In this document: in pieces, positions 2,930 through 22,284 of the stretch
Position numbering within the stretch: position 1 is the first letter of the stretch
Layout: each line of letters begins with the position of its first letter
Notes under the pieces: generated by a model
What the model saw: the letters and a program-made list of their open reading frames with translations, nothing else
What the model was told of the DNA's origin: nothing
Databases searched by the model: none
Position numbers and translations under genes: made by a program
DNA from: Candidatus Methanomethylophilaceae archaeon
Lineage (GTDB): Archaea > Thermoplasmatota > Thermoplasmata > Methanomassiliicoccales > Methanomethylophilaceae
Assembly: GCA_944320495.1 (NCBI GenBank)
Contig: CALUHR010000005.1
Span: 248,581-312,580 of the forward strand
Reading direction: 5' to 3'
Length of the DNA stretch: 64,000 nucleotides

Positions 2930-4078
2930 ATGAGGGATGGGAAGATGAGCAACAGCAAACGGAAGGATGACGACCCGCTCTCCTACGGGAGCGTGATGGC
3001 CGTGTGGATGGGGAAGTCCTACCGCATCCCCGTCGATGCGGACGGATACGTGCCCATGGAGGCCCTGGTCATGCGCTATCAGCAGATGGGGAACAACGGA
3101 AGGGACAAGGGAAGGGACTCGGACATAGTGTTCCCCTCCCATGTCAGGCCGAAGGAGATCGTCAGATGGTGGGCGGACCCGTCCTCGTGCGACATCGAGG
3201 GCATCGACACCCGCGACTCCAAGGTGTACGACGTCTCCGGCCTGAAGGGAAGGCGCATGAAGGCCGCCCAGAGGAAGATCGGGATAGTCACCCCTTCCGC
3301 CGACGAACAGAGACGCATACGCAGGATCCTCTCGGAGGCGTTCACCGCCGCCGAGCTGGACGCCATGACGAGGGAGGGGTCCTTCGTCATCCGCACCCGC
3401 CCGAACTGCGGGAGCGTGATGGGATACTACCTCAGGAAGGCCGACGGCCAGGAGATCCCCCTCATAACCTTGGAGGAGGGCGTGTCCCCGGACACCGTCG
3501 TCCACGAGACCGTCCACCACGCAAGGACGTGCAGGAGGTCGGGCAAGTACACCAGGACGGCGTTCCCCATGAAGGGCGGAAGGCTGGACGAGGCGTACTA
3601 CGGACTGAGCCAGCAGCAGCGCGACATGATCAACGACGCCGAGGAGACGGAGACGACAGCCGAGGCGACAGCGAGGACCAAGAGGGACCCCTGCCCCACC
3701 GGGTATTGGGACAATGTCGGCGGAAGGGAGGCGTACATCCGCGACAAGACCGCCCTCGCAAGGTCGTGCGGCGGAGGGGACTGCACCCTGAAGGGGGCCA
3801 AGGCCGTCAGGACCGTGGAGAAGCAGTACGACAAGCTGGACATCGCGATGGCGTCTATCATGGCTGACGTCCCCGCGAAGGAGTCCGCCGCGAGGATCGC
3901 CAAGGGTTCCGCGTCCGGTAGGCCGAAGACGAAGACGGCAGCAACAGCGAAATCCAAGAGCCAGACTCCGAAGAAGACCACGAAGGCAAAGAGCCAGACA
4001 TCCAAAACCAAGGGGAAAGGGACGAGGCGACCCCTCTCCCTTTCCAAGGTTCCGTTCCTTAAACCGCTTGGCCCCTGA
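2930..4078 (+). CDS. Multidomain protein: unknown N-domain + HExxH zincin-like metallopeptidase + Lys-rich tail
   Basis: VVHETVHH at ~3497-3520; tail KTKTAATAKSKSQTPKKTTKAKSQTSKTKGKGTRR. Confidence 0.7.
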   Translation: MRDGKMSNSKRKDDDPLSYGSVMAVWMGKSYRIPVDADGYVPMEALVMRYQQMGNNGRDKGRDSDIVFPSHVRPKEIVRWWADPSSCDIEGIDTRDSKVYDVSGLKGRRMKAAQRKIGIVTPSADEQRRIRRILSEAFTAAELDAMTREGSFVIRTRPNCGSVMGYYLRKADGQEIPLITLEEGVSPDTVVHETVHHARTCRRSGKYTRTAFPMKGGRLDEAYYGLSQQQRDMINDAEETETTAEATARTKRDPCPTGYWDNVGGREAYIRDKTALARSCGGGDCTLKGAKAVRTVEKQYDKLDIAMASIMADVPAKESAARIAKGSASGRPKTKTAATAKSKSQTPKKTTKAKSQTSKTKGKGTRRPLSLSKVPFLKPLGP

Positions 4079-8041: not shown

Positions 8042-8905
8042 ATGCCCAAAAGCAACGATGCGATCCTGGCAGGGCAGTATAGGAAGCTCGACAGGACCAA
8101 GAACCGCGCCGTCCGCGACAAGCAGGCGTACGCGAGATACAACAGCAAGGCCGACAAGTACCGCTCCGGCACCGGGCACGGCATCGCCGTGTTCAGCCCC
8201 GTGTCGAAATCGGATACGTGGACCTACTCCGAGACCGGCGGCGAGACGAACGCCAACCGCAACCAGTACGGGGAGAAGGCCCCCGACAGGTCCTCCGGCA
8301 TGGGCTTCGACGAGCACACCAAGATGCTCGCGAAGCAGATCGAGGCGGCCGAGAAGGACGCCAAGGACGCGAAGAAGAAGAGGAAGACGGCCAGGAGCGA
8401 GATGCTCGAGGCCCGCAACCAGCACATCGCGTACAGGATGGCCCAGGGCAAGGCCCACGGCGTCGTCGTGTACAGCACCAGGGCCAAGCCCGTCGTGGGC
8501 GAGGTCGAGGTGCCCAGCAGGCACGGTTCCTACAACCGCTACCCCGTCGACGAGGACGGGAGGATCCCCGCGAGGGAGGTCAGGAGGATCGTGGACGAGC
8601 GCGTCGGATACTCCGGCGTGGACGACGGAAGGACCGCCAGGAGGGTTTACCCGTCCAGGCCGACCCCCCAGATGATGGACGACTACCTCGCGAGGCCGAA
8701 CAGGTCCGACATCGTCGGCATCGATGCGCCGAAGGGAACCAGGCCGACGGTGGACGCGAGGACGTACAAGAAACCGAAGACCGCGTCCGCCAGCGGATCC
8801 TGCAAGGCGAAGGCCAAGGCGCCCGCGAAGTCCGCTTCTAAGAAAGCACCCGTGAAGAAGACTCCGGCCAAGTCCACCAAGGCCAAGACCTCCGGGAGGC
8901 GCTGA
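8042..8905 (+). CDS. Array unit 1: basic protein with PVDEDGRIP...RSDIVGID domain + tail
   Basis: ORF; tail KAKAKAPAKSASKKAPVKKTPAKSTKAKTSGRR. Confidence 0.8.
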   Translation: MPKSNDAILAGQYRKLDRTKNRAVRDKQAYARYNSKADKYRSGTGHGIAVFSPVSKSDTWTYSETGGETNANRNQYGEKAPDRSSGMGFDEHTKMLAKQIEAAEKDAKDAKKKRKTARSEMLEARNQHIAYRMAQGKAHGVVVYSTRAKPVVGEVEVPSRHGSYNRYPVDEDGRIPAREVRRIVDERVGYSGVDDGRTARRVYPSRPTPQMMDDYLARPNRSDIVGIDAPKGTRPTVDARTYKKPKTASASGSCKAKAKAPAKSASKKAPVKKTPAKSTKAKTSGRR

Positions 8906-8907
8906 CC

Positions 8908-9348
8908 ATGGTCGACTACTCCGACATCGTCGGGAACAGCATCGTGGCCAGCGTCATCCAGTCTGACCCCGACACCTTCGAGGAAGTCGTGGCCAAGGCC
9001 GTGAGGACGACATCCAGCCGCAGCCAGGCCGCATCCAAGGTCGAGGACTACGTCAACGACGTCCTCTGGGACGTCATCAACGGTATGGAGGAGTACGAGC
9101 CCATCGCCTACTCCCTCGCATACTACGGGATGCAGTCGATGGAGTACGACGGCATCGGCGACGACATGACCCTGATCGTGGACACCTACATCAGGGAGAA
9201 CGGCCCCAAGGCCGCATCCGTCAGGCGTTCCCCGAACGGCAGGTCCGCACCCAAGCCCAAGTCCGCAGCCTGCAAGCCCAAGGCCAAGGCACCCGCGAAG
9301 AGGACGCCCGCCAAGTCCGCCAAGGCCAAGACTTCCGGGAGGCGCTGA
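8908..9348 (+). CDS. Array unit 2: acidic domain + basic tail
   Basis: ORF; tail ends KAKTSGRR. Confidence 0.8.
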   Translation: MVDYSDIVGNSIVASVIQSDPDTFEEVVAKAVRTTSSRSQAASKVEDYVNDVLWDVINGMEEYEPIAYSLAYYGMQSMEYDGIGDDMTLIVDTYIRENGPKAASVRRSPNGRSAPKPKSAACKPKAKAPAKRTPAKSAKAKTSGRR

Positions 9349-9350
9349 CA

Positions 9351-9788
9351 ATGTCCTACAACGGATACAGGAACAGCGCCACCTGGGGCGTCGCGCTGAT
9401 CTTCGGCAACGACTACGGCTACTACCAGCTGTCCAGGGAGTGGGTCGAGGCATGCGCCCGCAAGGGGATGACCAAGGCCCAGGCCAAGGGGAGGATCGCC
9501 GAGCTCATCGAGAACGAGGTCGACCACGAGTGGGACGGGGCCTACGACGCCGTCGCCCGCGTCGGGCCGATCGCGTCCCAGCTGCTCCCGTCCCTCGGGA
9601 GCATGGAGATCGACTACGGCGAGGTGGCCGACGGCATGCTCGAGGACTACTCCGACCTCAGGAAGGAGTGCGCGTCGTCCTCCGCCAGGCCGAAGGCCGG
9701 GAGCGCTGCGTGCAAGTCCAAGGCACCCGCGAGGAAGTCCCCGGCGAAGTCCTCCAAGCCGAAGTCCAAGACCGCAGGGAGGCGCTGA
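9351..9788 (+). CDS. Array unit 3: YNGYxNxxTW-family acidic domain + tail
   Basis: MSYNGYRNSATWGVALIFGND; tail ends KPKSKTAGRR. Confidence 0.8.
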   Translation: MSYNGYRNSATWGVALIFGNDYGYYQLSREWVEACARKGMTKAQAKGRIAELIENEVDHEWDGAYDAVARVGPIASQLLPSLGSMEIDYGEVADGMLEDYSDLRKECASSSARPKAGSAACKSKAPARKSPAKSSKPKSKTAGRR

Positions 9789-9789
9789 C

Positions 9790-10170
9790 ATGCTCCCTCA
9801 GACGTTCGAAGGGGAGGACGGCTTCGTCTCCGAGGTCGTCTACTACACCCTCTGCAAGAGGATCGACAGGCTCATGGACTCCCTGTACCGCAAGGGCGTG
9901 AAACCCCGCGACATGCGCAGTGACATCAGCGGGCTGATCGATTCGGAGATCGGAAAGGTGAACGCCGCCGGCATGAGGCCGGACGCCACCCTCACGGAAG
10001 CCCTGGCATACGCGATCGCCGACTGGTACTACGAGGAGAGGAACGATGTCGTCCAGTTCTGCATCGACAACTATGTCCCTCCCAGCGGTTCCAAGGCATC
10101 CAGGCCCAAGGCACCCGCCAAGAAGTCCCCGGCGAAGTCCTCCAGGCCGAAATCCAAGGGGAGGCGCTGA
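9790..10170 (+). CDS. Array unit 4: acidic domain + tail
   Basis: ORF; tail ends RPKSKGRR. Confidence 0.8.
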   Translation: MLPQTFEGEDGFVSEVVYYTLCKRIDRLMDSLYRKGVKPRDMRSDISGLIDSEIGKVNAAGMRPDATLTEALAYAIADWYYEERNDVVQFCIDNYVPPSGSKASRPKAPAKKSPAKSSRPKSKGRR

Positions 10171-10172
10171 CC

Positions 10173-10634
10173 GTGGCCCGGAGTCCCATCCGCATAGACT
10201 ACGGTCATGTGAGCGGGATGGCACTGGACATCGTCGTGGTGTACGAGCCGAAGTTCTCCGACACCCTCTGGGAGTGCGTCTCCGAGGGCATGGGCAAGGC
10301 CGACTGCATCGAGGAGCTCCGCTACTACCTCTACCACGGTGCCGAGCTCGCCGTCGGCAACACTAGGTTCGCCCCCGATCCCGACACCCCGCAGGACGAG
10401 CTCGACCTTTGCAGGAACATCGCCCTCAGGGGCGTCGACGACTACCAGGCGAGCGGGGAGGCCGACAGGGCCGCCAGTATCCTCGTGAACGACAACTACG
10501 AGAGGTTCAGGGCAGCCGTCAGGGACCACGGGAGCGGATCCCGCAGGACCGCTCCGAGGGGCGGTGCCAGCAGGCCGAAGGCCAAGGCACCCGCCAGATC
10601 TTCCAAGCCCAAATCCAAGGGGGTGAGGAGATGA
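10173..10634 (+). CDS. Array unit 5 (GTG start): acidic domain + tail
   Basis: ORF; tail ends KPKSKGVRR. Confidence 0.8.
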   Translation: MARSPIRIDYGHVSGMALDIVVVYEPKFSDTLWECVSEGMGKADCIEELRYYLYHGAELAVGNTRFAPDPDTPQDELDLCRNIALRGVDDYQASGEADRAASILVNDNYERFRAAVRDHGSGSRRTAPRGGASRPKAKAPARSSKPKSKGVRR

Positions 10635-11065
10635 CCTACAACGGTTGGGCCAACCGCCCCACCTGGGCGATAGCCCTCTGGTTCGACAACGACGAGGGCC
10701 TGAGTTCCATGAAGGACGAATGGATCCAGGATGCCGCCGATCAGGGGATGTCCTATGAGGAGGCCGAGGACTACGTCTGGGACCGTCTCGAGGAGTACGT
10801 TGAGGAGGAGTACGCCGAGGCATGCGACTCCGTCAACCCCATGATCGCCGACGCGCTGCTGATGTCCCCCGGAATGGCCAACATCGTCTTCTCCGAGATC
10901 GTCAGAGGGTTCCTCCGTGACGCGGACTACAGGCCCGCGGCGTCCGGTTCCAAGAAGCGGAAGGTCGGGGGCGTTCCCAAGAGCGGTTCCAAGGCTGTCA
11001 AGCCCAAGGCGAAGACGCCCGTGAAGAAGGCGTCCAAGCCGAAGTCGAAGAGGGTCCACAGATGA
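10631..11065 (+). CDS. Array unit 6: YNGWxNxxTW-family acidic domain + tail
   Basis: ATGA overlap start; MTYNGWANRPTWAIALWFDNDE. Confidence 0.8.
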   Translation: MTYNGWANRPTWAIALWFDNDEGLSSMKDEWIQDAADQGMSYEEAEDYVWDRLEEYVEEEYAEACDSVNPMIADALLMSPGMANIVFSEIVRGFLRDADYRPAASGSKKRKVGGVPKSGSKAVKPKAKTPVKKASKPKSKRVHR

Positions 11066-11418
11066 CCCGCTATCGCACGCCCGACGGCGACGTCATCGAC
11101 GAGGGCGACCTCGAGGACGCAATCTACGCCGCATTCACCGAGGACGACTTCAGACGCTGGCTGGACTCGAACTACTCTGGGTTCGACTATGACAGGTACC
11201 ACATCCCCGCGTCCGAGGTCCTGGACGTCATGGGAGAGTTCGACTACAAGTACCGCGAGACGGTGGACTCCATCGTCTCCGACTACGGGTCCGACTATCC
11301 GTCACTGGAGGACCTTGGATTCGAGGAGCTCGACGACGATGACGATGAGTCCCACTCCAAGAGGCCGAAGGCCCGTCCCAAGACCTCCAAGCCCAAGTCC
11401 AAGGGGGTGAGGAGATGA
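11062..11418 (+). CDS. Array unit 7: very acidic domain + tail
   Basis: ATGA overlap; D/E/Y-rich. Confidence 0.8.
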   Translation: MTRYRTPDGDVIDEGDLEDAIYAAFTEDDFRRWLDSNYSGFDYDRYHIPASEVLDVMGEFDYKYRETVDSIVSDYGSDYPSLEDLGFEELDDDDDESHSKRPKARPKTSKPKSKGVRR

Positions 11419-11960
11419 TGTGGACCTATGAGGATAGGGACGGCGTCATCCGCGTCGCCGACGAGCAGGAGATCCTCTACAAGGTGACGCCCGACGCGGC
11501 CTTCGCCAAGTACCTGGACAACGAGTTCTCCGAGATCGACATCCTAGACCGCACCTACGAGCCGTCGGAGGTGTTCATCGAATGGTCCGAGGATGACTTC
11601 GCCAGGGCTGCCTCCGAGTGGTTCAACGACGCCATCTTCCACCCGACCGAGAGGGACCTCTCCTACTTCGAGGAAATCGGAGTCTTCCCCGCGACCGAGG
11701 AGGACATCCGCAACGAGAAGGTGGACAGGGGCATCGACAGGGTCGGCAAGAGGTCCGCGGGACTACAGAACGCCCTCGGAAAGAGGGGTTCCGGCACCGC
11801 CAGGCCGAAAGCCGGCGGCAGGATGACCATCAGGCCGAGGGCGAAGCCGAAGACTCCCGTGAAGAAAGCGTCCAAGGCGAAGTCCGCGTCCAAGACCGCC
11901 AAACCGAAGACTCCCGTGAAGAAGACGTCCAAGCCCAGATCCAAGGGGGCCCGCAGATGA
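11415..11960 (+). CDS. Array unit 8: acidic domain + internally duplicated tail
   Basis: KPKTPVKK occurs twice in the tail. Confidence 0.8.
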   Translation: MMWTYEDRDGVIRVADEQEILYKVTPDAAFAKYLDNEFSEIDILDRTYEPSEVFIEWSEDDFARAASEWFNDAIFHPTERDLSYFEEIGVFPATEEDIRNEKVDRGIDRVGKRSAGLQNALGKRGSGTARPKAGGRMTIRPRAKPKTPVKKASKAKSASKTAKPKTPVKKTSKPRSKGARR

Positions 11961-12409
11961 CCGGCTCCGACTGGGCCAACTACGAGACGTGGCTCGTCCA
12001 CGTCCACATGTTCAACGAAGAGTCCGTGCGGAAGGAGTTCCGCTCCGCCCTCGAGAAGAGGGCCAAGGAGGGGCTGGACCGCCGCACGGTCCGTGACATC
12101 GTCACGCATGATGTCCAGGCTTTCGTGGAGGAGACCGCCGAGGAGGCGTCCCGGCGCGTCCGCAACCCCATGATAGCCGATTTCATCGGATCCTTCCCGG
12201 GACGCATAGACTGCTCCCAGATTGCCGACTCGTGGATGGAGGTCTACGACGGCATCGCCGCGGAGCAGGTGACATCCAGGTCCCCTTCCAAAGGGACCGC
12301 TCGCAACACACCGACGAGGAAGGGACAGAGGTCCCGCGCCCAGAGGTCGAGACGATCGAGGGGAGGTGTTTCTGAATGGTTTACAACGGAAGATCGAAAG
12401 GAAAGATGA
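11957..12409 (+). CDS. Array unit 9: WxNxxTW-family domain + Arg-rich tail
   Basis: MTGSDWANYETWLVHVHMFNEE; frame runs past the next ATG (12376). Confidence 0.75.
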   Translation: MTGSDWANYETWLVHVHMFNEESVRKEFRSALEKRAKEGLDRRTVRDIVTHDVQAFVEETAEEASRRVRNPMIADFIGSFPGRIDCSQIADSWMEVYDGIAAEQVTSRSPSKGTARNTPTRKGQRSRAQRSRRSRGGVSEWFTTEDRKER

Positions 12410-13545
12410 AATCGAGAGGAATGGGAACGAAAGCCGGGAGGAGGCCTCCCGCATCCCGGTCGCTGAAGGCGGTCGTCACGCCCGACGTGTCGCCGGAGAG
12501 CCCCTTCGACGGCATGTCGATGTTCGGTTCCCTTCTGATATGCGATCCGAGCGTCGGCAATACCCGCAACTACGTGTCCTTCGAGGATCTGGACGAGTTC
12601 TGCAACGCGAAGTTCGACATAGACAGGTTCTACGATGAGGTCTACACCAGGAGCGAGAGGGACGTCGCCACATACATCCGTATGTACGGCGCACTGGCCG
12701 TGGAGGTCCGCGGCGCACTCATCATCGCGGGCCACGAGCAGATCGTCCGCGAGTACGGCTACGACAACGCCGATTCGAGGGCGAAGGCCCTGGACCTCCT
12801 GAGAAACGAGGCCGAGATCTACATGCAGTGGGCCGACGGGGACGTCTGGCAGGCCATCGTCTATGACGACCACACCGACGACGAGTCCGTCCCGGACAGA
12901 GTCGTCATCAGGTACGATCCCTGGGACGACGACGAGGACGGCGATATCGTGGACTCCCTGGGCGAACTGTACGGACAGGAGTACGCCGAGCAGGAAGCTA
13001 AGCGCATGATCGTCGACGAGAGGGAATCCCGCGGGCAGACCCCGAACTTCGCCAAGGGTTCGGCGTCGAGGAAGGCTCCAAAGAGCCGTTCCGCGTACAG
13101 TGCGAAGGGACGCCCTTCCGTCGGCCAGTATGACAGGGCGAGATACGCCAGGGCCACGAGCGGCGGACACTCGATTCTCAGGGTCTACTACGATCCGGGC
13201 GAGTCCGAGATGATGGGACGCCCCGTCTACGACGTGGTTGCCCGCAAGGCCGGCATCCCCGGGCTTATCTGGGGCAAGGACTACGACCCCGCCTCCGGCC
13301 TCTGGAGCGGAGGGGACTACGACATCACGAGGGAGAAGCTCGAGAGACACGCGATGGGACATGACCTCATCCGCGAGTACGGGCAGATTCCCGCGGACGC
13401 GTTCGGGAGGTCCAAGGGCATGAGCCAGACGTCCAGACCGAAGTCTAAGCCGAAGGTTCCCGCATCCAAGGCTGCCAAGCCGAAGTCCAAGGCGCCAGCG
13501 AAGAAGCCCGTCGCCAAACCCAAGGCGGAGGGGGGACGCAGATGA
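12376..13545 (+). CDS. Array unit 10: two-domain protein with internal and terminal basic tracts
   Basis: Motif IYMQWADGDVW; internal GSASRKAPKSR; terminal KPKAEGGRR. Confidence 0.8.
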   Translation: MVYNGRSKGKMKSRGMGTKAGRRPPASRSLKAVVTPDVSPESPFDGMSMFGSLLICDPSVGNTRNYVSFEDLDEFCNAKFDIDRFYDEVYTRSERDVATYIRMYGALAVEVRGALIIAGHEQIVREYGYDNADSRAKALDLLRNEAEIYMQWADGDVWQAIVYDDHTDDESVPDRVVIRYDPWDDDEDGDIVDSLGELYGQEYAEQEAKRMIVDERESRGQTPNFAKGSASRKAPKSRSAYSAKGRPSVGQYDRARYARATSGGHSILRVYYDPGESEMMGRPVYDVVARKAGIPGLIWGKDYDPASGLWSGGDYDITREKLERHAMGHDLIREYGQIPADAFGRSKGMSQTSRPKSKPKVPASKAAKPKSKAPAKKPVAKPKAEGGRR

Positions 13546-13982
13546 CCCTCCGCGACGAAGCCCCGCTGACCTTCGAGTTCGGCAACAACACCTGGCTCAC
13601 CTGGGAGTACTACCGCGACAACGAAGCCCTCTCCGAGTCCTGGACGGAGGAATGCGCCCGGGAGGGACTGACCCGCACCCAGGCCGTCGAGAGGATCGTC
13701 GGGAACATCAGGGACGATCTCGCCGACGCCTTCAGGGACGGCGTGTTCAGTACGCAGAACCCGGCGACTTCCGCGGTCCTGCTCCAGGACCCCGATCTCA
13801 TGGACATCGACTACAGGCAGGTCGCCGTACGCATCGTCCATGCGTTCTGGCCCGAGGGGTCCGCATCCCCGAGAAGGGCGTCCAAGCCGAAGGCACCCGC
13901 GTCCAAGGCGAACAAGCCGAAGGCCAAGGCACCCTCCAAGAGGCCCACAACCAAACCCAAGTCCAAGGGGGGACGCAGATGA
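13542..13982 (+). CDS. Array unit 11: divergent NxxTW-family domain + tail
   Basis: FGNNTWLTWEYYRDNE; ATGA overlaps at both ends. Confidence 0.8.
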   Translation: MTLRDEAPLTFEFGNNTWLTWEYYRDNEALSESWTEECAREGLTRTQAVERIVGNIRDDLADAFRDGVFSTQNPATSAVLLQDPDLMDIDYRQVAVRIVHAFWPEGSASPRRASKPKAPASKANKPKAKAPSKRPTTKPKSKGGRR

Positions 13983-14788
13983 AGGGCAGGACCGCAACCA
14001 GGTCCCCGTCCAAGCGCTCCGTCATCTACCCGGTCAGGGACGCGCCCTGCCCGGTCAGGACGACAGCGGGTTCCGACATCACGGACGACGTGATCCTGTT
14101 CCGCCGCAAGGGCAGGCAGGGGGACCCCGCCGCGTATCTCACGGACGACGGACGCTCCCTCATCGACCTCGTGGCCGCCAAGGCCGGCCCCGATGCCGCG
14201 GGAGGGTTCGCATCCCACAGGTTCCGCTCCGACGACACCATGACGAGGGCGCTCAGGGAGCTCGGCATATCCAACGAGGTCGTGGACGAAGGCATCCTGG
14301 CATCGGCTAGGGGCATCTACGGCTACGAGTCCTACGACTACAGGATGTGGTCCAACGGCCACACCGGATACCGCGTCGCCCATGTGGAGGACCCCTCCGA
14401 CGACACGGGCAGGAACCTCATCGTGGACGACGAGTCGAAGATCCCTGGCAGGGTCATCTCGAAGGGGAACCGCATCTACTACAACGAGAGCAAGGCGGAG
14501 CTCCACGGTGCCGAGTTCGGCAGGGACAACGCCCCGAAGAGGGACTGGAGGTTCAGCCTGGCGTTCCGCGGGGATACCAGCGGGCTCACGGTCGAGGAAG
14601 TCTCCAGGCTCGGCTACGACGGGCGCGACATGGAGGTCGGCGACGAGATGTCCGTCGGCCCCCTCGTGATCAGGAGAGTCAAGGGCGACGCCATGGACTA
14701 CGTCTCGAGGTCTGGCTCGCCGAGATCGAAGGCCAAGGCGCCCGCCAAGAAGGCATCCAAACCCAAGTCCAAGGGGGTGAGGAGATGA
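13979..14788 (+). CDS. Array unit 12, paralog of unit 13
   Basis: ATGA start; RSPSKRSVIYP, DDPSDDTGR-like and NAPKRDWRF motifs shared with unit 13. Confidence 0.8.
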   Translation: MKGRTATRSPSKRSVIYPVRDAPCPVRTTAGSDITDDVILFRRKGRQGDPAAYLTDDGRSLIDLVAAKAGPDAAGGFASHRFRSDDTMTRALRELGISNEVVDEGILASARGIYGYESYDYRMWSNGHTGYRVAHVEDPSDDTGRNLIVDDESKIPGRVISKGNRIYYNESKAELHGAEFGRDNAPKRDWRFSLAFRGDTSGLTVEEVSRLGYDGRDMEVGDEMSVGPLVIRRVKGDAMDYVSRSGSPRSKAKAPAKKASKPKSKGVRR

Positions 14789-15642
14789 ACGGCAAGGCAC
14801 CGAGATCCCCATCCAAGCGTTCCGTCATATATCCGGCGAAGAACGCGACCTGCCCCGTAAGGACCAAGGCGGGAAAGGACCCCGCGGCCAACTCGACACT
14901 CTACCGCTTCAGGGGCGACGTCGTCGGGGACCCGAACGCATACGTCACCGACGACGGGAAGACTCTCGTGGATCTCGTCGGAGCTGTGGCGGGTCAGAAG
15001 GATGCCGAGGAGTTCTCCGGACACAGGTATCGCACCATCGACGCGCTTCTGGACCGTCTCGGGGGATTCGACATCTATGCGACTCGCTGCTCGGACCTCT
15101 CGATAGTCGCCGGGAGATACAGCATAGTGTACGACGAGGCCAAGGATTATGACCGCTGGCTCGACGGCGACGTGTTCCGTGTCGCCGAGGTCGACGACCC
15201 GTCCGACGATACCGGCAGAACCCTCTACGTCGATGATGTGTCTCAGATCCCCGGGCGTATAATCCGCAAGAGGCACGGTGTGTACTCTTACGAGGACGCA
15301 CAGCACACGGCGGCGGAATTCGGCATGGAGAATGCCCCGAAGAGGGACTGGAGATTCTATGTCGGTCAGAGGCCTGGTGACAACTCCATCGGCTACGATG
15401 ATGCGGTCAGACTCGGCTACGACGGTCGTGACATGAAGGTCGGCGATTATATGGAGGTCGGGCCTCTCATAATCCAGAGGGTCGATGGCCATCTGTCGGG
15501 CTATTTCGCCCCGGACTCCGACGGCTCCAAACCGATAACCAGGAGGACGGTCGGGCCGAAGGCTGGGACATCCGGCAAGGTACCAACCAAGACTCTCGCA
15601 TCCAAAGCCACCAAGCCCAAGTCCAAGGGGGTGAGGAGATGA
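14785..15642 (+). CDS. Array unit 13, paralog of unit 12
   Basis: ATGA start; YDRWLDGDVF motif. Confidence 0.8.
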   Translation: MNGKAPRSPSKRSVIYPAKNATCPVRTKAGKDPAANSTLYRFRGDVVGDPNAYVTDDGKTLVDLVGAVAGQKDAEEFSGHRYRTIDALLDRLGGFDIYATRCSDLSIVAGRYSIVYDEAKDYDRWLDGDVFRVAEVDDPSDDTGRTLYVDDVSQIPGRIIRKRHGVYSYEDAQHTAAEFGMENAPKRDWRFYVGQRPGDNSIGYDDAVRLGYDGRDMKVGDYMEVGPLIIQRVDGHLSGYFAPDSDGSKPITRRTVGPKAGTSGKVPTKTLASKATKPKSKGVRR

Positions 15643-16025
15643 GCGTCAGCGCGTTCGTCCACACGTACTTCATCAGATACCTGGAAGAGAAGGGCGTGGA
15701 CATCTACGACTACGCCATGGAGCTGGCGGAGAGCGGCAGGGACTACTGGGACTGCGAGGAGGTGTTCGCGGACTACATCGAGCGTCTCGCCATCGAGTTC
15801 CAGTACGATGCGGCGGACTACGCCGAGTCGGACATCACCACGATGCTCGTCGAGGACTGCCTCCTCAGGGAGGTCGTGGACTTCGACCTGTTCTTCGACA
15901 GGGACGGCAGCCCGCTGAAGGGCAGGTCCGGTTCCCGCAGGCCCGCGTCCAAGGCAACCGGGCCCAAGGCCAAGGCATCTGCCAAGAAACCCTCCAAGCC
16001 CAAGTCCAAGGGGGTGAGGAGATGA
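15639..16025 (+). CDS. Array unit 14: acidic domain, paralog of unit 16
   Basis: ADYIERLAIEFQ vs ADYIGRLAVEFQ. Confidence 0.8.
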   Translation: MSVSAFVHTYFIRYLEEKGVDIYDYAMELAESGRDYWDCEEVFADYIERLAIEFQYDAADYAESDITTMLVEDCLLREVVDFDLFFDRDGSPLKGRSGSRRPASKATGPKAKASAKKPSKPKSKGVRR

Positions 16026-16627
16026 CCGGGTACGGCTGGGAGTTCCCGGACGGAACCGTCATCCCCGTCGAGGACGGTTCCGCCGTCGAGGACAAACTCC
16101 TCTCGATGGACTCCTTCTGGGACAGGAACAGGAAGGACTGCCTCCGCCAGGGGCTGTTCTACCAGTGGTACTGCGACGAGATCGGGCGCGACATCGAGAA
16201 CATGTCCGAGAGGGAGCTCTACGACCACTTCGGCGTCAGATGCTCCGAGGACAGGGACGGGAAGGTCGTCTACGTCCTGCCCGAGGGTGACAGGACCGAT
16301 GCGAGGGGACTCTTCGAGTGGATCGAGGAAGAGGGCTACCGCTACGACGAGTGGCTGGAGTTCAACTCCGACTGCTACGACTTCAAGGAGCTGGTGAAGA
16401 ACGAGGCCGAGTATCTGACCTCCGACTACGGCAACGAGGAGTCCATGGGGTACTACGGCGTCAGGCTGGTACCGATGTCCTCCGGATCCAAGAGGCCGTC
16501 CAAGCCGAAGGCGAGGACTCAGGCGAGGAAACCCGTCTCGAAGTCCGCGTCCAAGGCATCCAAGCCCAAGGCCAAGGCTCCCGCGAGGAAAGCATCCAAG
16601 CCCAAGGCGAAGGGGGTGAGGAGATGA
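16022..16627 (+). CDS. Array unit 15: acidic domain + tail
   Basis: ATGA overlaps; D/E/Y/W-rich. Confidence 0.8.
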   Translation: MTGYGWEFPDGTVIPVEDGSAVEDKLLSMDSFWDRNRKDCLRQGLFYQWYCDEIGRDIENMSERELYDHFGVRCSEDRDGKVVYVLPEGDRTDARGLFEWIEEEGYRYDEWLEFNSDCYDFKELVKNEAEYLTSDYGNEESMGYYGVRLVPMSSGSKRPSKPKARTQARKPVSKSASKASKPKAKAPARKASKPKAKGVRR

Positions 16628-17016
16628 CCGCCGACGTGTTCGTCGCCCGCGCCTTCCTCAAGTACCTGGATGGGAGACGGGAGAGACACGATCTCTACGC
16701 CCTGAAGCTGGCCGACAGCGGCAGGACCGAACGGGAATGCGAGGACGCGTACGCCGACTATATCGGACGTCTCGCCGTCGAGTTCCAGCGGAGTGCGGTG
16801 AATGACGTCGATCCGGACGTCACGGAGCAGCTCGTCGAGGACTTCGACTTCCATGAGTTCGTGGACACGGGCTACTACTTCGAGTTCGACGGGACCCCGC
16901 GCGACAGGTTCGGCACCCGCAGGGCCGGGTCCGCGTCCAAGGCATCCAGGCCGAAGGCCAAGGCTCCCGCGAAGAAGCCCGCATCCAAGCCCAGGTCCAA
17001 GGGGGCGAGGAGATGA
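16624..17016 (+). CDS. Array unit 16, paralog of unit 14
   Basis: ATGA start at 16624. Confidence 0.8.
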   Translation: MTADVFVARAFLKYLDGRRERHDLYALKLADSGRTERECEDAYADYIGRLAVEFQRSAVNDVDPDVTEQLVEDFDFHEFVDTGYYFEFDGTPRDRFGTRRAGSASKASRPKAKAPAKKPASKPRSKGARR

Positions 17017-18443
17017 CCGCACCCAGGCGCAGAGCATCCTCGAGGTCCGCCCGCTACGCGGGGGACCTCCCCAAGAGGATCCGCGACCACCCGTACCTGT
17101 CCGTCCCGGGAGGCGTCCTCCGCCTCCCCGACGGGACAAGGGTGTACGCCGAGTCGGACATCGAGCTCCTCGATGGCCAGGACGAGGGTCTCGTCTACTT
17201 CTGGACGGACGCGGTCGACGAGGAGGGCGGATACTACGGCATCGCGTTCTCCTTCGAACTCGACGAGCTCATGAGGACCCCCTGGAACAAGGTGGACTGG
17301 CAGGGACACATCGACGACGTGACCTACGAGCCGCCCGAGAGCGGTTCCAAAAAGCCCAGATCCAAGACCAAAGTCTCAAAGAGGCCCGTCTCCAAGTCCT
17401 CCAAGCCCCGCGTCTTCACCGTGGCCGATTGGGACGCGGGGAGGATCGGGGAGATGAGGCCCGGCGACGGGCTCGACAGGGAGCTGTACGACGGACTCCG
17501 CTGGAACGGCTACCCCTACCCCGCCGACCCCCGCGTCCTGGCGGCCAACGGTTGCATCCGCGGGTACTGTCTGGGGAAGGTCAGCGATAGGGGCAACTAC
17601 ACCTACGGCGAGACCCCCGACGGGAGATACGTCTACCTCGGTCTCTCGATCCCGCTGGACGAGACGCCCTACACCATGGCCCTGTCCAACCCGAACAGCC
17701 TCGATTCCCGCTACGACGCCCGCGTCGCCGCGAAGGAGGTCGAGGCCGAGGAGAGACGCCAGAGGGAGTGGGCCAAGGATCCCCGCTCCAAGTACGTCGA
17801 TGTGGACGAGTGCAGGATCTACGGGGCCGTCGAGACGTTCGACGACCTCGTGGAATACTACACGCTCTTCAACCCGGAGTATGCGGAGCGTCTCCGCGAC
17901 CCCGAGGTCGTTGGGTATCTGAGGGACTACTACGCCCACATGGACTGGGTGAGCCACGGGAACGGACCCAGCTACGACGAGGACGTGGACGGGGAGACGA
18001 TGCTCAGCCATCTGTACGACCTCACCGAGGAGGCCGAGTCGTTCCAGACGGAGTTCATGGAGGACGAGTACGAGAACGGCGACACCGACATGCTGGACTT
18101 CCTCAGACGCCGTGCGGCGATCCAGAGGAGGTACGGAGTCGAACCAGACTGGAAGGATTCTTCCAGTGGTTCCAGGAAGGGCAAGACACCCTCCAAGGCG
18201 TCCAAGCCCAAGGCACCTGTCAGGAAGGCCGCCCCCAAGGCGGCCTCCAAGACCACCAAGCCGAAAGCGAAGACTCCCGCCAAGAGGCCCGCCGCCAAGC
18301 CCAAGACAAAGGGGGCGAGGCGATGGGCACGTCCAACTACGCCCACGACACCAGCTTCCTCGTATGGGCCTTCGAGTACGAGCCCGACGAGGACTGGTAC
18401 CGCGAGGAGTTCCCCGACGAGTCCGACGACTCGATCCACCTGA
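17013..18443 (+). CDS. Array unit 17: fused multi-domain unit with internal tail; reads ~40 aa past its tail
   Basis: Internal GSKKPRSKTKVSKRPVSKSSKPR (~17340-17410); KGARR followed by TGG instead of TGA. Confidence 0.8.
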   Translation: MTAPRRRASSRSARYAGDLPKRIRDHPYLSVPGGVLRLPDGTRVYAESDIELLDGQDEGLVYFWTDAVDEEGGYYGIAFSFELDELMRTPWNKVDWQGHIDDVTYEPPESGSKKPRSKTKVSKRPVSKSSKPRVFTVADWDAGRIGEMRPGDGLDRELYDGLRWNGYPYPADPRVLAANGCIRGYCLGKVSDRGNYTYGETPDGRYVYLGLSIPLDETPYTMALSNPNSLDSRYDARVAAKEVEAEERRQREWAKDPRSKYVDVDECRIYGAVETFDDLVEYYTLFNPEYAERLRDPEVVGYLRDYYAHMDWVSHGNGPSYDEDVDGETMLSHLYDLTEEAESFQTEFMEDEYENGDTDMLDFLRRRAAIQRRYGVEPDWKDSSSGSRKGKTPSKASKPKAPVRKAAPKAASKTTKPKAKTPAKRPAAKPKTKGARRWARPTTPTTPASSYGPSSTSPTRTGTARSSPTSPTTRST

Positions 18444-18988
18444 TGATGGCCGAGGACCGCGACATGGAGTACAGGCAGGTCGAGAAGGCCGTCCAGCCCA
18501 TGCTGGACCGCCTCAACTCCGATCTCCTGTTCCACAGACTGGGTATCCGCTCCGGGTACTACGACGGCATCCAGGTCTATGTCGACGAGCCGTCCCAGGA
18601 CAGGTGGCTGGTGCCGGAGCTCCGCGATGCCTGGGAGGAGATGTACGGCGAGGACTCCGTCCCCGACGACACCAGACTCCTCGGCGTCTACGCCGACGAG
18701 CGCACCCGCATCAGGAAGTGGCTGAGGGACAACCTGCCCCGGCTCGGGTTCCATGCCCTGAGGTACACCTCTCCGTGGACGATCGAGCGCGTGGAGAATC
18801 CCAGCAGGAGGGCGTCCAAGCCGAAGGCGAAGAACCCCGCAAAGAGGTCCAGGCCGAAGGAATCGTCCAAGACGGTCAAACCGAAGACTAAGCCCAAGAA
18901 CCAAGAGAAGAACTCTGGAACTAAGTCCAGAAAGAGGTTCCGACATGTCCAAACGCGAGCGTGGCGGTGTCGGAAAGAGACCTGGTAG
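18323..18988 (+). CDS. Array unit 18: acidic domain; tail disrupted at junction with the lower-GC gene
   Basis: ATG after GGGGCGAGGCG; tail degenerates to KPKNQEKNSGTKSRKRF. Confidence 0.75.
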   Translation: MGTSNYAHDTSFLVWAFEYEPDEDWYREEFPDESDDSIHLMMAEDRDMEYRQVEKAVQPMLDRLNSDLLFHRLGIRSGYYDGIQVYVDEPSQDRWLVPELRDAWEEMYGEDSVPDDTRLLGVYADERTRIRKWLRDNLPRLGFHALRYTSPWTIERVENPSRRASKPKAKNPAKRSRPKESSKTVKPKTKPKNQEKNSGTKSRKRFRHVQTRAWRCRKETW

Positions 18989-19886
18989 AAGGTCGTATCA
19001 TCAACCAGGACAGCCCAGATACCCCGTCAGGAGGTCCCCAGAAGAATTCAAAGAGATGGGTTCCAAAGTCTCCAAGATTGGCAGAATCGAAAAAAGAAGA
19101 TCGATCTGGGCCATAGACGATTCAGGAACTGCTGATTTTACCGAAGGTGCGAGTGAATACCTGACGTTGACGGCAGTGACGATGCTGAACGAATCGGATT
19201 TCAGGAAGATGTTCTCTAACATCACACTGTATGATGGGGAGATAAAATTCAATCTCCTGAGATTGGAACATCCCGACGAATGTCTCACTGCCATGAAGCG
19301 CATCGGCAGCAGTACGGCCTTCATCGCTTGCTACCCTCGCTTCAAGGATTTTTCCAATCCCCAGGATCGTCGTCTGTTCTTCTTGGAATCCCTACAGAAA
19401 CTCATCGATTCTATCATGCGGATCGATCGTTCGAGTCTTGTCCTGATAGGTGTGGATGAGAACAACTACCTGTTGTCCTCTGACTACTACGAACTATGCA
19501 GTCCCAGATGCCTGGTATTCCCTATCGACTCGAAGGATTCTCTCCTTTTGCAGACAGCGGACATGGCCACGAGTAGCTTGGGCCATGCCCTGCTTCCCGC
19601 GAATAGGGGGACATCCGCATATTTCGATGAAATCAGAGACAGAACGATGAATGTACACGGGAAGCCCGGCGTAAGCACACAGCAAACACCAAGGGGCTTC
19701 AACCGTGACGATATAGAATCGACCACAGAAGTTAAAAAGGTTGGTGGGTCCAAATCATCCAAATCCCGTTCTACGAAGGTTGTTCGTGGAAAGGATGGAA
19801 GATTCGTATCCTCTAACCCCTCCAAGCAGAAATCAACCCAGAAAAATGAGTCGAAGGCATCCAAGCCCAAGGGGGTCCGCAGATGA
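18945..19886 (+). CDS. Array unit 19: DUF3800-like protein fused to the basic tail
   Basis: IWAIDDSG and DSKDSLLLQTAD motifs; lower GC than neighbours; ends SKASKPKGVRR. Confidence 0.6.
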   Translation: MSKRERGGVGKRPGRRSYHQPGQPRYPVRRSPEEFKEMGSKVSKIGRIEKRRSIWAIDDSGTADFTEGASEYLTLTAVTMLNESDFRKMFSNITLYDGEIKFNLLRLEHPDECLTAMKRIGSSTAFIACYPRFKDFSNPQDRRLFFLESLQKLIDSIMRIDRSSLVLIGVDENNYLLSSDYYELCSPRCLVFPIDSKDSLLLQTADMATSSLGHALLPANRGTSAYFDEIRDRTMNVHGKPGVSTQQTPRGFNRDDIESTTEVKKVGGSKSSKSRSTKVVRGKDGRFVSSNPSKQKSTQKNESKASKPKGVRR

Positions 19887-20283
19887 CCCTTATATCCCCA
19901 GCCACTGATGTTGGCGATGCGGTCGCGGAAACACCTCGCAGTAGGGAACGTGGCGGCTCCCACGCGACTGCACCTCTTGTTTCAGATTGTGAAGATAGAA
20001 ACGGACGCCCGCTCCCGGTTGTGGGCACAGTTCTCCCACAGTGTCGGGTGCGTCGTCCCCAGTGGTCCCAAGGTGTCACCCCCAGGTTGCCGCCTGCAAG
20101 GATCGATGCGGCTGAAGGTATTTCAACCCATTCCCGCACCATCAACCGTACGTCCGTCCTCCGTGGACTGGCGCTGAACATTCTCTCGCACATCGCGGGG
20201 ACCTCTGGGTCCCCCACAAACCCCAACAAGGATGGGAATCCGATGAAAATGTACAGCGCAATCAGTGGAACGGGGGTCTCCGC

Positions 20284-20946
20284 ATGACCCTCTGGAACGT
20301 CTATCTGCCCCACGGCAACTTCGCCGAGAGGATGGCCGTCGAGGCCCCGAACGAGAGGGAGGCATTGGAGGCCGTCGCGGAGAAGCTCCGCGGGACCGTC
20401 TTCGTCATCGACTATGACGAGTGGGACGCCAGATTCCAGGACTACATCGCGGACGGGTACTCCGCCGACGAGGCGGAGAACATACTGGACGAGATGTACC
20501 TGCCGGTGGACGGCGGGTACTACCTGGACATCACGGGCGTCACCATCGAGGAGGCCCGCGACACCGGCTCCGACGGCAGGGTCGACGCCGTCAAGCTGGC
20601 CTACGATCTCGCCGACTTCGGCGAGGAGACGGACCACTACGAGTTCTGGGACAACTACAACACCATGGAGGACGCCGTCACCCAGCTCACCCAGTCCCTG
20701 GGAACCCTCGCGGGCTCCAGGGCGATCCGCGACGACATCGCGGAGAGGATGGCCGAAGGATTCGCCACCTATGGCGAGGACGAGAAGGCCAGGGGCCTCA
20801 TATCCAGGCTCGACAGGCACATCAGATCCTTCGGCAGCGGTTCCGGGAGGCCGAAGGCCGGGAGGCCCGTCTCCAAGGCGTCCAAACCGAAGGCCAAGGC
20901 ACCCGCCAGATCCTCCAAGCCGAAAGCCAAGGGAGGACGCAGATGA
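20284..20946 (+). CDS. Array unit 20: acidic two-part domain + tail
   Basis: ORF; KLAYDLADF...DHYEFWD segment; ends KPKAKGGRR. Confidence 0.8.
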   Translation: MTLWNVYLPHGNFAERMAVEAPNEREALEAVAEKLRGTVFVIDYDEWDARFQDYIADGYSADEAENILDEMYLPVDGGYYLDITGVTIEEARDTGSDGRVDAVKLAYDLADFGEETDHYEFWDNYNTMEDAVTQLTQSLGTLAGSRAIRDDIAERMAEGFATYGEDEKARGLISRLDRHIRSFGSGSGRPKAGRPVSKASKPKAKAPARSSKPKAKGGRR

Positions 20947-21374
20947 ACTCGTACATCGACGCGGGGCAGATCGCCGAACACCTGAGGTACGAGCGCGACA
21001 GGGGGAGGCTCGAAGCCTTCCTCGATAGATCCGTGGATCTCGACGGCATCCTCATCAAGACGAGGGAGACGTCGAGGGGTGGCAGGGTCGTGTCCGAGCG
21101 CGTCATCGAGATGACGCTGCCGATCCGCTGGGCCGATCTCGGGGCCACCTTCGTCCTCAGGCCCCTCGCGCCCAACCACGTCGCCATGTACCCCGAGTCG
21201 GACCCCGAAGACCCTGTGTATTCGACGGTGGCGAATGACGTCTGGAGATGGCTCCTGGACAGATACCGCGAATCCGCCGCCGGACACGGCGTGGACATCG
21301 ATGCCTACGGGACCGTCATCACGGCTTCCCTGAGGCCGGCATCCAAACCCAAGTTCAAGGGGGCGAGGAGATGA
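20943..21374 (+). CDS. Array unit 21: domain + short tail
   Basis: ATGA start; ends ASKPKFKGARR. Confidence 0.75.
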   Translation: MNSYIDAGQIAEHLRYERDRGRLEAFLDRSVDLDGILIKTRETSRGGRVVSERVIEMTLPIRWADLGATFVLRPLAPNHVAMYPESDPEDPVYSTVANDVWRWLLDRYRESAAGHGVDIDAYGTVITASLRPASKPKFKGARR

Positions 21375-21706
21375 GCGCGCGCATCAACGACCCGCTCGGG
21401 TTCGCCAACGGCGTGATGCCCAGGAACCCTCCCCAGGCTTACCGTGCGGTGATCATGCGTCCCGACGGCAGCGTCAGCATCACCCATGAGTTCCCCCGCG
21501 GATTCCTCGAGCAGGTAGTCATCCCGGACGCCCTTGCCCAGGTTCCGGGCGGAAGGCTCTTGGAGATAATCCGCGACGAGGATAAGGAGGCCTGGATAAG
21601 GGCGCACACCAAGCCCAGGTCCGCGTCCAAGGCGTCCAGGCCGAAGGCCAAACCTCCGGCGAAGAAACCCGCGTCCAAACCCCGTTCCAAGGGGGCGGTA
21701 CGCTGA
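21371..21706 (+). CDS. Array unit 22: domain + tail
   Basis: ATGA start; ends KPRSKGAVR. Confidence 0.75.
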   Translation: MSARINDPLGFANGVMPRNPPQAYRAVIMRPDGSVSITHEFPRGFLEQVVIPDALAQVPGGRLLEIIRDEDKEAWIRAHTKPRSASKASRPKAKPPAKKPASKPRSKGAVR

Positions 21707-21747: not shown

Positions 21748-22284
21748 GTGTGGACCGTCACCGCGACGTCCGACGACCCGGCCGACCCCTCCGGCCCCCT
21801 CGGGGCCAGGGTGGTGGTGGAGAACCCCGCCTCCGCCTGGACCCGCTACCGGGAGGTGTCGGAGTTCAGGCCCCGCGGCGCGAGGGACGAGTGGGTCGGC
21901 GTCCCCGCCTACGTCAGCGAGAGGGCGGAGGAGATGCTCGAGGACGAGCGCGACGACCTGGAGAACAGGATTCGCTGGATCCTGAACAGGCACGACGGGC
22001 GCGGGAAGATCCTCTACGACAGGATCAAGGGTTCCGCCGTCGGCCCCTGCCCCAGGTGCGGCTCCCGCTCGGTGACCGTCGATTCCTGCGTGAAGAGGGG
22101 GAAGGGCAACTCGCTGGTGGACGGCCCCTATTCCATAGCGTGCTGCGACTGCTGGCTCCGCACCTCGTACCACGTCGACAGGTCGCTGATGCTGGCTGAG
22201 TGGAACGAGGGGCATCCGTGGCTCGAGTACAGGCCGGGCAGGCCGGTGCCGATCCGCGGGGACTATGAGAGGTGCGGGGCATGA
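21748..22284 (+). CDS. Zn-finger protein with Lar (restriction alleviation)-like C-terminal domain
   Basis: GPCPRCGS...IACCDCW...MLAEWNEG resembles Lar PCPFCG...CxxC...AIxxWNxR. Confidence 0.55.
   Translation: MWTVTATSDDPADPSGPLGARVVVENPASAWTRYREVSEFRPRGARDEWVGVPAYVSERAEEMLEDERDDLENRIRWILNRHDGRGKILYDRIKGSAVGPCPRCGSRSVTVDSCVKRGKGNSLVDGPYSIACCDCWLRTSYHVDRSLMLAEWNEGHPWLEYRPGRPVPIRGDYERCGA

Follow-up and report, generated by a model that had tools for sequence, protein, structure and literature searches.

A translationally coupled array of small proteins sharing one polycationic C-terminal tail in an integrated element of a Methanomethylophilaceae archaeon

Lys/Ala/Pro-rich tails that bind DNA are familiar from the C-terminal domain of histone H1, Chlamydia Hc1, Pseudomonas AlgP, and the 'PAKKA' repeats of mycobacterial HupB. 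Effectors that are co-delivered with DNA have in turn been described among polyvalent proteins and the internal proteins of phages (Iyer et al. 2017, PMC5512222); for archaeal viruses, an anti-BREX protein carried in the virion has been reported (bioRxiv 10.64898/2026.04.28.721311). Here, we describe a locus to which the delivery precedents may apply by concept only: a 64,000-nucleotide (nt) stretch of contig CALUHR010000005.1 (positions 248,581 to 312,580; assembly GCA_944320495.1) from a Candidatus Methanomethylophilaceae archaeon, hereafter the window, in which 22 small open reading frames (ORFs), each composed of a variable head and a basic C-terminal tail, form a translationally coupled operon of exchangeable cassettes within an integrated virus- or plasmid-like element. 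We tentatively propose that the tail may be a polycationic, polyanion-binding tag that tethers the exchangeable accessory proteins to the element's DNA, a reading that we regard as quite possible, if short of probable.

The 22 ORFs occupy positions 8042-21706 of the plus strand, with stop and start codons that overlap or lie 1-20 nt apart. The GC content of third codon positions (GC3) is 0.79-0.96, compared with about 0.4-0.5 at second positions (GC2), in a genome of 62% GC, which is the pattern of real genes. An earlier note on this DNA had described 22 different ORFs in an unbroken run; their coordinates and strand hold, but about 400 nt (19883-20287) intervene between units 19 and 20, and paralogue groups (units 3/6/9/11, 12/13, and 14/16) reduce the 22 units to approximately 17-18 distinct head families, which are otherwise unrelated. 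More than 30 head families occur across variants of the element. Head and tail were divided at the point where acidic, aromatic, and aliphatic residues stop. So defined, the tails measure 13-54 amino acids (aa; mean 36.5), carry net charges of +6 to +19 (mean +13.2), and are dominated by Lys (24.3%), Ser (15.7%), Ala (15.5%), Pro (12.9%), and Arg (12.4%), with no hydrophobic or amphipathic element. The heads contain 3.5% Lys and 8.8% Arg, have a mean net charge of -10.5, and are acidic in 20 of 22 cases (units 1 and 19 are basic), in agreement with the earlier description; the isoelectric points (pI) of the whole proteins range from 4.4 to 11. All tails fit a single alignment consensus (...SKAxKPKAKxPAKxxSKPKSKGxRR), many with a looser SxS(R/K)(R/K)P start, and therefore represent one homologous module, more than a common composition. 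The proposal that this module has been grafted onto unrelated heads is thus borne out, and the module extends to an HExxH protein beyond the array. The GS dipeptide that had been named as a frequent switch point is found near the head/tail boundary in 13 units but is absent from it in the other nine (across all arrays, 31 of 71 non-identical tailed proteins have it). A strict tail filter applied in six frames to the whole genome (14 contigs, 1.77 Mb) returned 14 ORFs, 14/14 of them inside the array. The tail array is a real feature, far above chance. Its units are as follows (contigs L082, L084, and L086 carry variants of the element).

8042..8905 (+), unit 1: 287 aa; basic head with a domain of about 70 aa ('GYVP...RSDIxGIDxP'); 45-aa tail ending KTSGRR
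8908..9348 (+), unit 2: 146 aa; acidic head, 64% identical to that of its orthologue in the related genome G035; 49-aa tail
9351..9788 (+), unit 3: 145 aa; DUF7249 head; 39-aa tail
9790..10170 (+), unit 4: 126 aa; acidic head; 31-aa tail ending KSKGRR
10173..10634 (+), unit 5: 153 aa; GTG start; acidic head; 34-aa tail; another cassette in its place in L082 and L086
10631..11065 (+), unit 6: 144 aa; DUF7249 head; 44-aa tail; five-helix model with a predicted local distance difference test score (pLDDT) of 95
11062..11418 (+), unit 7: 118 aa; head charge -24; 20-aa tail
11415..11960 (+), unit 8: 181 aa; acidic head; 42-aa tail; L082 version of 197 aa with a different tail length
11957..12355 (+), unit 9: 132 aa with a CGA stop at 12353; weakly DUF7249-like head; Arg/Ser-rich tail
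12376..13545 (+), unit 10: 389 aa; acidic head; 40-aa tail
13542..13982 (+), unit 11: 146 aa; distant paralogue of units 3 and 6; 41-aa tail
13979..14788 (+), unit 12: 269 aa; 49% identical to its paralogue unit 13; 28-aa tail; not in L082/L086
14785..15642 (+), unit 13: 285 aa; 34-aa tail; not in L082/L086
15639..16025 (+), unit 14: 128 aa; 43% identical to its paralogue unit 16; 35-aa tail
16022..16627 (+), unit 15: 201 aa; head charge -21; 49-aa tail
16624..17016 (+), unit 16: 130 aa; 34-aa tail
17013..18323 (+), unit 17: 436 aa; CGA stop at 18321, forming an overlapping CGATG with the start codon of unit 18
18323..18943 (+), unit 18: 206 aa; CGA stop at 18941; tail shortened by the insertion of unit 19
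18945..19886 (+), unit 19: 313 aa; DUF3800 head; lower-GC stretch (18880-19886)
19883..20287 (+), gap in the array: untailed ORF of 134 aa (52 aa in L086), doubtfully coding; ATGA overlaps on both sides
20284..20946 (+), unit 20: 220 aa; head charge -25; 37-aa tail
20943..21374 (+), unit 21: 143 aa; shortest tail, 13 aa
21371..21706 (+), unit 22: 111 aa; head charge -1; 32-aa tail ending GAVR, not xRR; last cassette, with no coupled downstream gene

Selection on the tails was assessed by Nei-Gojobori counts between window units and their 67-95% identical orthologues in two metagenome contigs. Pooled tails (415 codons) gave a synonymous divergence (dS) of 0.349, a nonsynonymous divergence (dN) of 0.133, and a dN/dS of 0.38, and pooled heads (1999 codons) gave values of 0.193, 0.064, and 0.33, respectively. 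The terminal Arg is kept through changes among AGG, CGC, and AGA codons, the tails prefer Lys although the heads and the GC content favour Arg, and the diverged arrays (genomes G035 and G158, contigs L089 and L090) have basic Lys/Ser/Ala/Pro/Asn/Gly tails with different DNA and peptide sequences. Together, these observations indicate that the tails are translated and constrained as protein. The earlier note had named two outcomes that would speak against its proposal, namely tails free of purifying selection and tails confined to this locus; purifying selection is evident from the pooled dN/dS, and tails are present on every homologue found in related elements.

The DNA at the cassette borders carries a second layer of information. 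Most junctions read AAG-GGG-GTG-AGG-AGA-TGA, the next ATG overlapping the stop codon as ATGA, and those of units 1-4 read GGG-AGG-CGC-TGA-C(C/A)-ATG; within the array this DNA is nearly invariant. Across six arrays, 39 of 61 junctions contain an exact match of at least 5 nt to GGAGGTGA, 4-10 nt before the next start, and the remaining junctions have G-rich versions with one mismatch. The C-terminal peptide varies with the junction type: ATGA overlaps yield G(V/A/G)RR, TGAC(C)ATG spacers yield tails ending in GRR, RRC, RRY, RRH, or RRN, and in L090, where AGGAGG lies three codons further upstream, the tail end is ARRSSR. Across the genome, GGAGG, AGGAG, GAGGT, AGGTG, and GGTGA are the 5-mers seen most often ahead of well-defined starts, and G content peaks at -12 to -8. 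From these upstream words and the junction-dependent endings, the GxRR ending is the Shine-Dalgarno (SD) sequence of the next cistron, together with the ATGA stop/start overlap, translated in frame; the 3' end of the 16S rRNA, which would hold the anti-SD sequence, is absent from the assembly. The terminal GxRR thus need not be a protein motif, and the KG(V/A/G)RR signature that had been put forward as the characteristic tail ending is largely a ribosome-binding site (RBS) belonging to the following gene. The last cassette, which has no coupled gene, ends in GAVR or GAGR, a single observation that gives weak support to an RBS origin of the RR pair.

Among 60 relatives searched with a junction 30-mer (up to 3 mismatches), one was matched, G035, which harbors a syntenic element with approximately 13-15 tailed ORFs and the same gene order as the window. 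In genome contigs, a junction 20-mer was found only in the metagenome-assembled genome (MAG) G035 and as three single matches in unrelated bacteria, which were taken as chance. A tail hidden Markov model (HMM) run against 174 family genomes detected only the present genome (G000) and one weak match in G158; as it missed the real array of G035, this search is insensitive. The element-family ATPase, encoded upstream of the array, is present in 45 of 173 other family genomes, so the family itself is widespread. In the 20 regions examined downstream of the ATPase, multi-cassette tailed runs occur only beside the closest ATPases, with at least five tailed ORFs in G158, one or two in G032, and two basic-tailed ORFs each in G030 and G031; the G155 region is cut by a contig end, and the remaining regions contain none or one.

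Beyond these genomes, searching 5.8 billion proteins with the tail profile yielded 38 small proteins, drawn from ENA and Logan assemblies; all sequences inspected were tailed, and several had head types absent from the window. In the same protein set, all four non-self homologues of the unit 15 head were tailed, two of them (P0003 and P0004) being two-cassette fusions that retain an internal tail remnant. The DUF7249 head of unit 6 recovered 371 cluster representatives at E <= 0.001; among the best 149 of these, 19 are basic-tailed (median 158 aa) and rank with those nearest the query, and the other 130 are untailed (median 109.5 aa). On this evidence, the tail is a lineage-specific add-on. 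The sequencing runs that hold the stretch are chicken-gut metagenomes (DNA), with no RNA runs listed.

Cassette exchange was followed by comparing the window with the metagenome contigs L082, L084, and L086, each head being labelled by a family letter. Logan contigs over the array were short and broken within it, and their joints, with sides of fewer than 40 letters, were left unused. The orders of heads are:

Window: A B C D E F G H I J K L M N O P Q R R' S T U V W
L086: A X C D Y F G H I J K N P O O' Q R S T U Z W AA
L082: D Y F G H I J BB N P O Q' Q R. T DD EE W AA
L084: P(fragment) O O' Q R T GG U W

All four arrays share a collinear backbone, yet individual slots are swapped (B/X, E/Y, K-L-M/K/BB, and V/Z), and the order of two cassettes is flipped between variants (O P vs P O). 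All of the variant cassettes carry tails, and tail-coding DNA marks where cassettes have been replaced, duplicated, fused, or split between variants. Folding of eight junctions as single-stranded DNA gave z values of -2.86, -0.24, 0.88, -1.73, 0.66, 0.55, 1.43, and 0.79 (5/8 positive), with no hairpin shared across the eight; homology between tail-coding repeats is therefore a likelier route of exchange than attC-type site-specific recombination.

Several units record such events individually. Within unit 17, a tail-like stretch lies at about residues 109-135 (...SGSKKPRSKTKVSKRPVSKSSKPRV...), and the two halves of the unit each match a gene of their own in L082, making unit 17 a natural fusion or hybrid of two cassettes. 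The C-terminal 80 or so residues of unit 19, together with its tail, match the C-terminus of the unit 18 homologue in L082 and L084; a DUF3800 gene was inserted into the C-terminal part of unit 18 and took over its tail, a case of tail grafting still under way. In L082 and L086, a DUF3800 gene with a tail of its own sits after the Lar-like gene that follows the array. The stretch at 19883-20287, whose ORF failed the GC3 filter, is conserved at the 3' end of that ORF and in the junction leading to unit 20; it may represent a decayed cassette or have a regulatory role. DUF7249 (PF23907), for which the Pfam gathering cut-off is 27 bits, is matched above that cut-off by units 3 (32.8 bits) and 6 (41.2 bits) and below it by unit 9 (20.4 bits), and unit 11 is tied to the group only through BLASTP to unit 3. 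In the wide VIA search, the DUF7249 model reached a best Z of 5.3, which is the noise level for a helical bundle.

Three units end at CGA when this codon is read as a stop: unit 9 as ...RAQRSR (12353-12355), unit 17 as ...KTKGAR (18321-18323), and unit 18 as ...KSRKRF (18941-18943). Under the standard code, the 22 ORFs contain 430 Arg-family codons, of which six are in-frame CGA, all at or beyond the ends of these same three units. In other genes of the element, the sole CGA lies at the 3' end beside the next start (2906, 4028, 27030, 27494, and 29576), and across array and element together, two stop/start overlaps take the form CGATG; only the ORF at 22727 departs from the pattern, its two CGA falling at codons 3 and 5, before an internal Met. 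The pattern fits a role of CGA as a stop codon in this genome and its mobile element. With a CGA stop, units 9, 17, and 18, which are aberrant under the standard code, acquire regular ends; the tail of unit 9, previously singled out as Arg-rich, is Arg/Ser-rich as described, but its end moves to the CGA at 12353, from which a 20-nt spacer containing GGAGGTG leads to unit 10. The three CGA-terminated units thereby lend independent local support to the CGA-stop reading of the genome.

The array is embedded in an element that spans about 36 kb from a surface-protein gene to an integrase. Its other features, including those located upstream of the window in the adjoining stretch L013, are:

L013 11723-11796 (G000:C5), approximately 8.3 kb upstream of the window: tRNA-Asp, about 1.3 kb left of the large surface-protein gene
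L013, upstream: large surface protein of 1087 aa with a signal-type N-terminal segment and a C-terminal transmembrane (TM) segment
L013, upstream: three small TM proteins, a protein of 317 aa with a pair of N-terminal TM segments, and additional soluble ORFs
1202..2908 (+): Zot-like P-loop ATPase without TM segments; a C-terminal helix-turn-helix (HTH)-like segment is followed by a basic stretch and a strongly acidic end
2930..4030 (+): HExxH protein of 366 aa with HExxHH and a downstream DAEE block; K/T/S-rich tail ending KGKGTR and a CGA stop
6557-7060, just upstream of the array: Fic/DOC-family ORF with an HPFxDGNKR motif (Pfam E 3e-9) and no tail
21748..22284 (+), directly after the array: untailed zinc-ribbon protein with a Lar-like match below the cut-off; kept in L082, L084, and L086
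28553..29596 (+): tyrosine recombinase (Phage_integrase) located toward the element's right side, approximately 7 kb downstream of the array

No exact direct repeat of at least 13 nt joins the left flank to the integrase side, and no att-type repeat that would mark the ends of the element was found between tRNA-Asp and that side. In the protein encoded at 2930-4030, the HExxHH and DAEE blocks are invariant among five orthologues and the N-terminal domain reads 'GYVP...WWADPSSCDIxGIDT', making it a candidate zincin peptidase that itself carries the tag; it has no Pfam match, and its AlphaFold model (mean pLDDT 51.7) is too low for a fold search. A domain of about 70 aa (...WW.HP.RSDI.GID.P), belonging to no known family, is common to the proteins at 8042-8905, 2930-4030, 22727-23788, and 25097-25612 and to their G035 counterparts, and the latter two window proteins end in Arg-rich stretches. 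The tail is also found on the HExxH protein and on the DUF3800 protein and is missing from the ATPase, membrane proteins, integrase, and Lar-like protein; it is thus confined not to the array but to accessory-looking proteins. Pfam and PHROGs scans of the context ORFs, which covered part of the element's ORFs, recovered, as an ATPase, only the Zot-like protein and no VirB4, VirD4, or other type IV secretion system (T4SS) family, and no Rfam family was matched on the element. A CRISPR-like mini-array lies at 26212-26416, where direct repeats (four, each about 21-31 nt long and built on a CCCCGC-N4-GCGGGG hairpin core) follow one another at a spacing of 61-62 nt; no cas gene was present among the element ORFs scanned.

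Pleolipovirus-like proviruses with pleolipovirus-type fusogens have been reported in Methanomassiliicoccales, according to work cited in PMC10919331. The present element shares the host order and an integrated state with an integrase, and its succession of a large membrane-anchored protein, small TM proteins, and an ATPase resembles HRPV-1 VP4, ORF5-7, and VP8. Unlike pleolipoviruses, however, it is several times larger, its ATPase shows no BLASTP similarity to the HRPV-1 and HRPV-6 proteins, and its surface protein looks adhesin-like. When 50,697 records of phages and archaeal viruses were searched by tblastn with the surface protein, the outcome was one partial match, to a gut phage, and no pleolipovirus; PDB sequences yielded nothing, look-alikes in the ESM Atlas were only sub-0.9 leads to Ig-like or surface proteins, and one homologue has a Beta_helix Pfam domain, the consensus reading like an Ig-type adhesin. 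For the ATPase, tblastn against phage records returned nothing, and a search for close relatives in genome contigs returned no relatives by that method.

How the tail could serve as a DNA tether, an idea already put forward in the earlier note, can be outlined from these features. An unstructured peptide with a net charge of about +13 and no hydrophobic residues would be expected to bind polyanions, and in a cell with a replicating element its likeliest ligand would be the element's own DNA. Tethering would concentrate a variable complement of accessory proteins, probably with roles in host takeover or anti-defence, on that DNA, where they might act on it, compact it, and accompany it into a vesicle or particle and from there into the next cell; the tailed HExxH protein could strip the tags after entry. 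The complete delivery scheme, in which the tail, as a universal label portable by recombination, would load a swappable library of takeover and counter-defence proteins onto the genome of an archaeal virus or plasmid of the vesicle type, these proteins would enter the next cell with the DNA, and the HExxH protein would trim their labels, we consider somewhat unlikely. In favor of tethering stand the real genes with one module, the tails unique in the genome, and the protein-level selection, together with a composition that outlasts the DNA sequence, a lineage-specific addition, a tail that moves with its cassette, and a tag that reaches beyond the array.

Several results weigh against it. DNA binding, packaging, and the particle itself are presumed, and the most plausible anti-restriction candidate, the Lar-like protein, is untailed. 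The ATPase showed no BLASTP similarity to HRPV-1 VP8 or HRPV-6 ORF8, neither it nor the junction 20-mer had a match in IMG/VR, and the surface protein carries sequence features pointing to a beta-helix/Ig-type adhesin. The DUF7249 model, the one head fold that could be modelled well, had no informative fold match (Foldseek against the PDB, none at E <= 0.001). Each of the seven G000 tails that have an orthologue in G035 scores higher with the remaining G000 tails than with the tail of that orthologue (within-G000 mean 61 vs between-element mean 41), and tail dS (0.35) exceeds head dS (0.19), both of which are signs of tail exchange inside the element. Part of the apparent conservation of the tail is thus at the nucleotide level, and its end motif is an RBS.

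The last of these points lead to a rival account, in which the tail is mainly a nucleic-acid junction module that supplies homology for exchange and, in its last 12-15 nt, the RBS and stop/start, the peptide being just harmless and disordered. This would accord with the GxRR, RRC, and RRY endings, which follow the distance of GGAGG(TGA) to the next start and not the protein end, with SD-type 5-mers being the commonest upstream words in the genome, with the location of cassette exchange at junctions, with the homogenised tails of G000 and their raised dS, and with the relaxation of RR to VR or GR where no coupled gene follows the last cassette. A dN/dS of 0.38, however, reflects constraint on protein, the Lys enrichment runs counter to the compositional bias of the genome, and tails of up to 54 aa go far beyond what an RBS needs; moreover, distant arrays retain the basic composition despite unrelated DNA sequence, and the HExxH protein is tailed though no coupled cassette follows it. 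On balance, a junction module with an idle peptide is the main rival to tethering and strikes us as unlikely.

Two further accounts accept a working peptide and assign it a different partner. As an export or membrane-targeting signal, the tail would bind anionic archaeal lipids or the ATPase/membrane module of the element, and its proteins would enter a vesicle or channel independently of DNA. Positively charged C-termini are known T4SS signals, and a surface-anchored protein (bearing a signal peptide and, at its C-terminus, a TM segment), small TM proteins, and a P-loop ATPase are indeed encoded upstream of the array; yet the scanned ORFs contain no T4SS family, the ATPase lacks TM segments and has an HTH-like segment and basic stretch that look DNA-directed, and the tails are devoid of hydrophobic or amphipathic elements, so that export in this form seems quite improbable. 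Still more doubtful is an action of the tail on its own head or on sister proteins, whether by neutralising or auto-inhibiting an acidic head or by forming head-tail condensates (e.g., a replication or assembly compartment). Mean head and tail charges nearly cancel (-10.5 vs +13.2), pI values spread from 4.4 to 11, and unit 17 as well as the fusions P0003/P0004 accommodate an internal tail, but units 1 and 19 and the HExxH protein are tailed without an acidic head, and tail length does not track head charge (unit 7, with -24, has 20 aa; unit 22, with -1, has 32 aa).

If the tail does tether proteins to the DNA of the element, it would offer a mobile element a simple route to co-deliver any protein and a modular alternative to polyvalent proteins and capsid-targeting sequences; no description of an archaeal co-delivery system of this kind was found in the literature searched. 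The small acidic heads, drawn from the mobilome of a gut methanogen, are natural candidates for anti-defence screens, and a short tag for loading DNA with cargo could serve as an experimental tool. One sequence acting as protein tag, RBS, and recombination homology would also be a case of overlapping codes.

Compared with the DNA-binding tails of H1, Hc1, AlgP, and HupB, the array tail is likewise rich in Lys, Ala, Pro, and Ser/Thr, poor in acidic and hydrophobic residues, C-terminal, and variable in length. The H1-like character asserted in the earlier note therefore holds for composition but not for profile matches: no Pfam family matched the tail of any unit, and the tail profile matched no PDB chain at E <= 10. 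Unlike the H1/Hc1-type tails, moreover, it sits on more than 20 unrelated, mostly acidic heads and not on one DNA-binding fold, and it has a fixed consensus with an embedded RBS. Polyvalent proteins and packaged effectors such as the T4 internal proteins and P1 Dar resemble the array in gathering many accessory activities in one mobile-element locus, in the association with a candidate zincin-type HExxH protein, and in the idea of delivery with DNA, which here is a proposed one; the array products differ as separate small tagged ORFs with their own starts and stops, only occasionally fused in pairs, and lack a MuF, portal, or T4SS context.

Encapsulin cargo-loading peptides, the C-terminal domain (CTD) of the type IX secretion system (T9SS), and PGF-CTERM/LPXTG signals also place one C-terminal module on many unrelated proteins behind a flexible Ser/Gly-rich linker. 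In contrast to these, the present tag is long, polycationic, and of low complexity, the tagged genes all lie in one array, and no shell, sortase, or secretion partner was identified for it. Integron arrays share with this locus the co-oriented, small, overlapping, and diverse cassettes with no room for separate promoters, the variation of cassettes between collinear copies of the element, and a tyrosine recombinase in the element, whereas the junction repeat described here is coding and translated and lacks an attC-like hairpin, and the recombinase lies 7 kb away and is a generic Phage_integrase match. Nothing relevant to a described tail-tag array, or to an account of DUF7249, was found in the literature searched. 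Shared C-terminal tags, H1-like tails, and cassette arrays are each already known; what is new to us is their combination in many unrelated proteins that carry one polycationic tail, the DNA of which doubles as an RBS and as a point of exchange.

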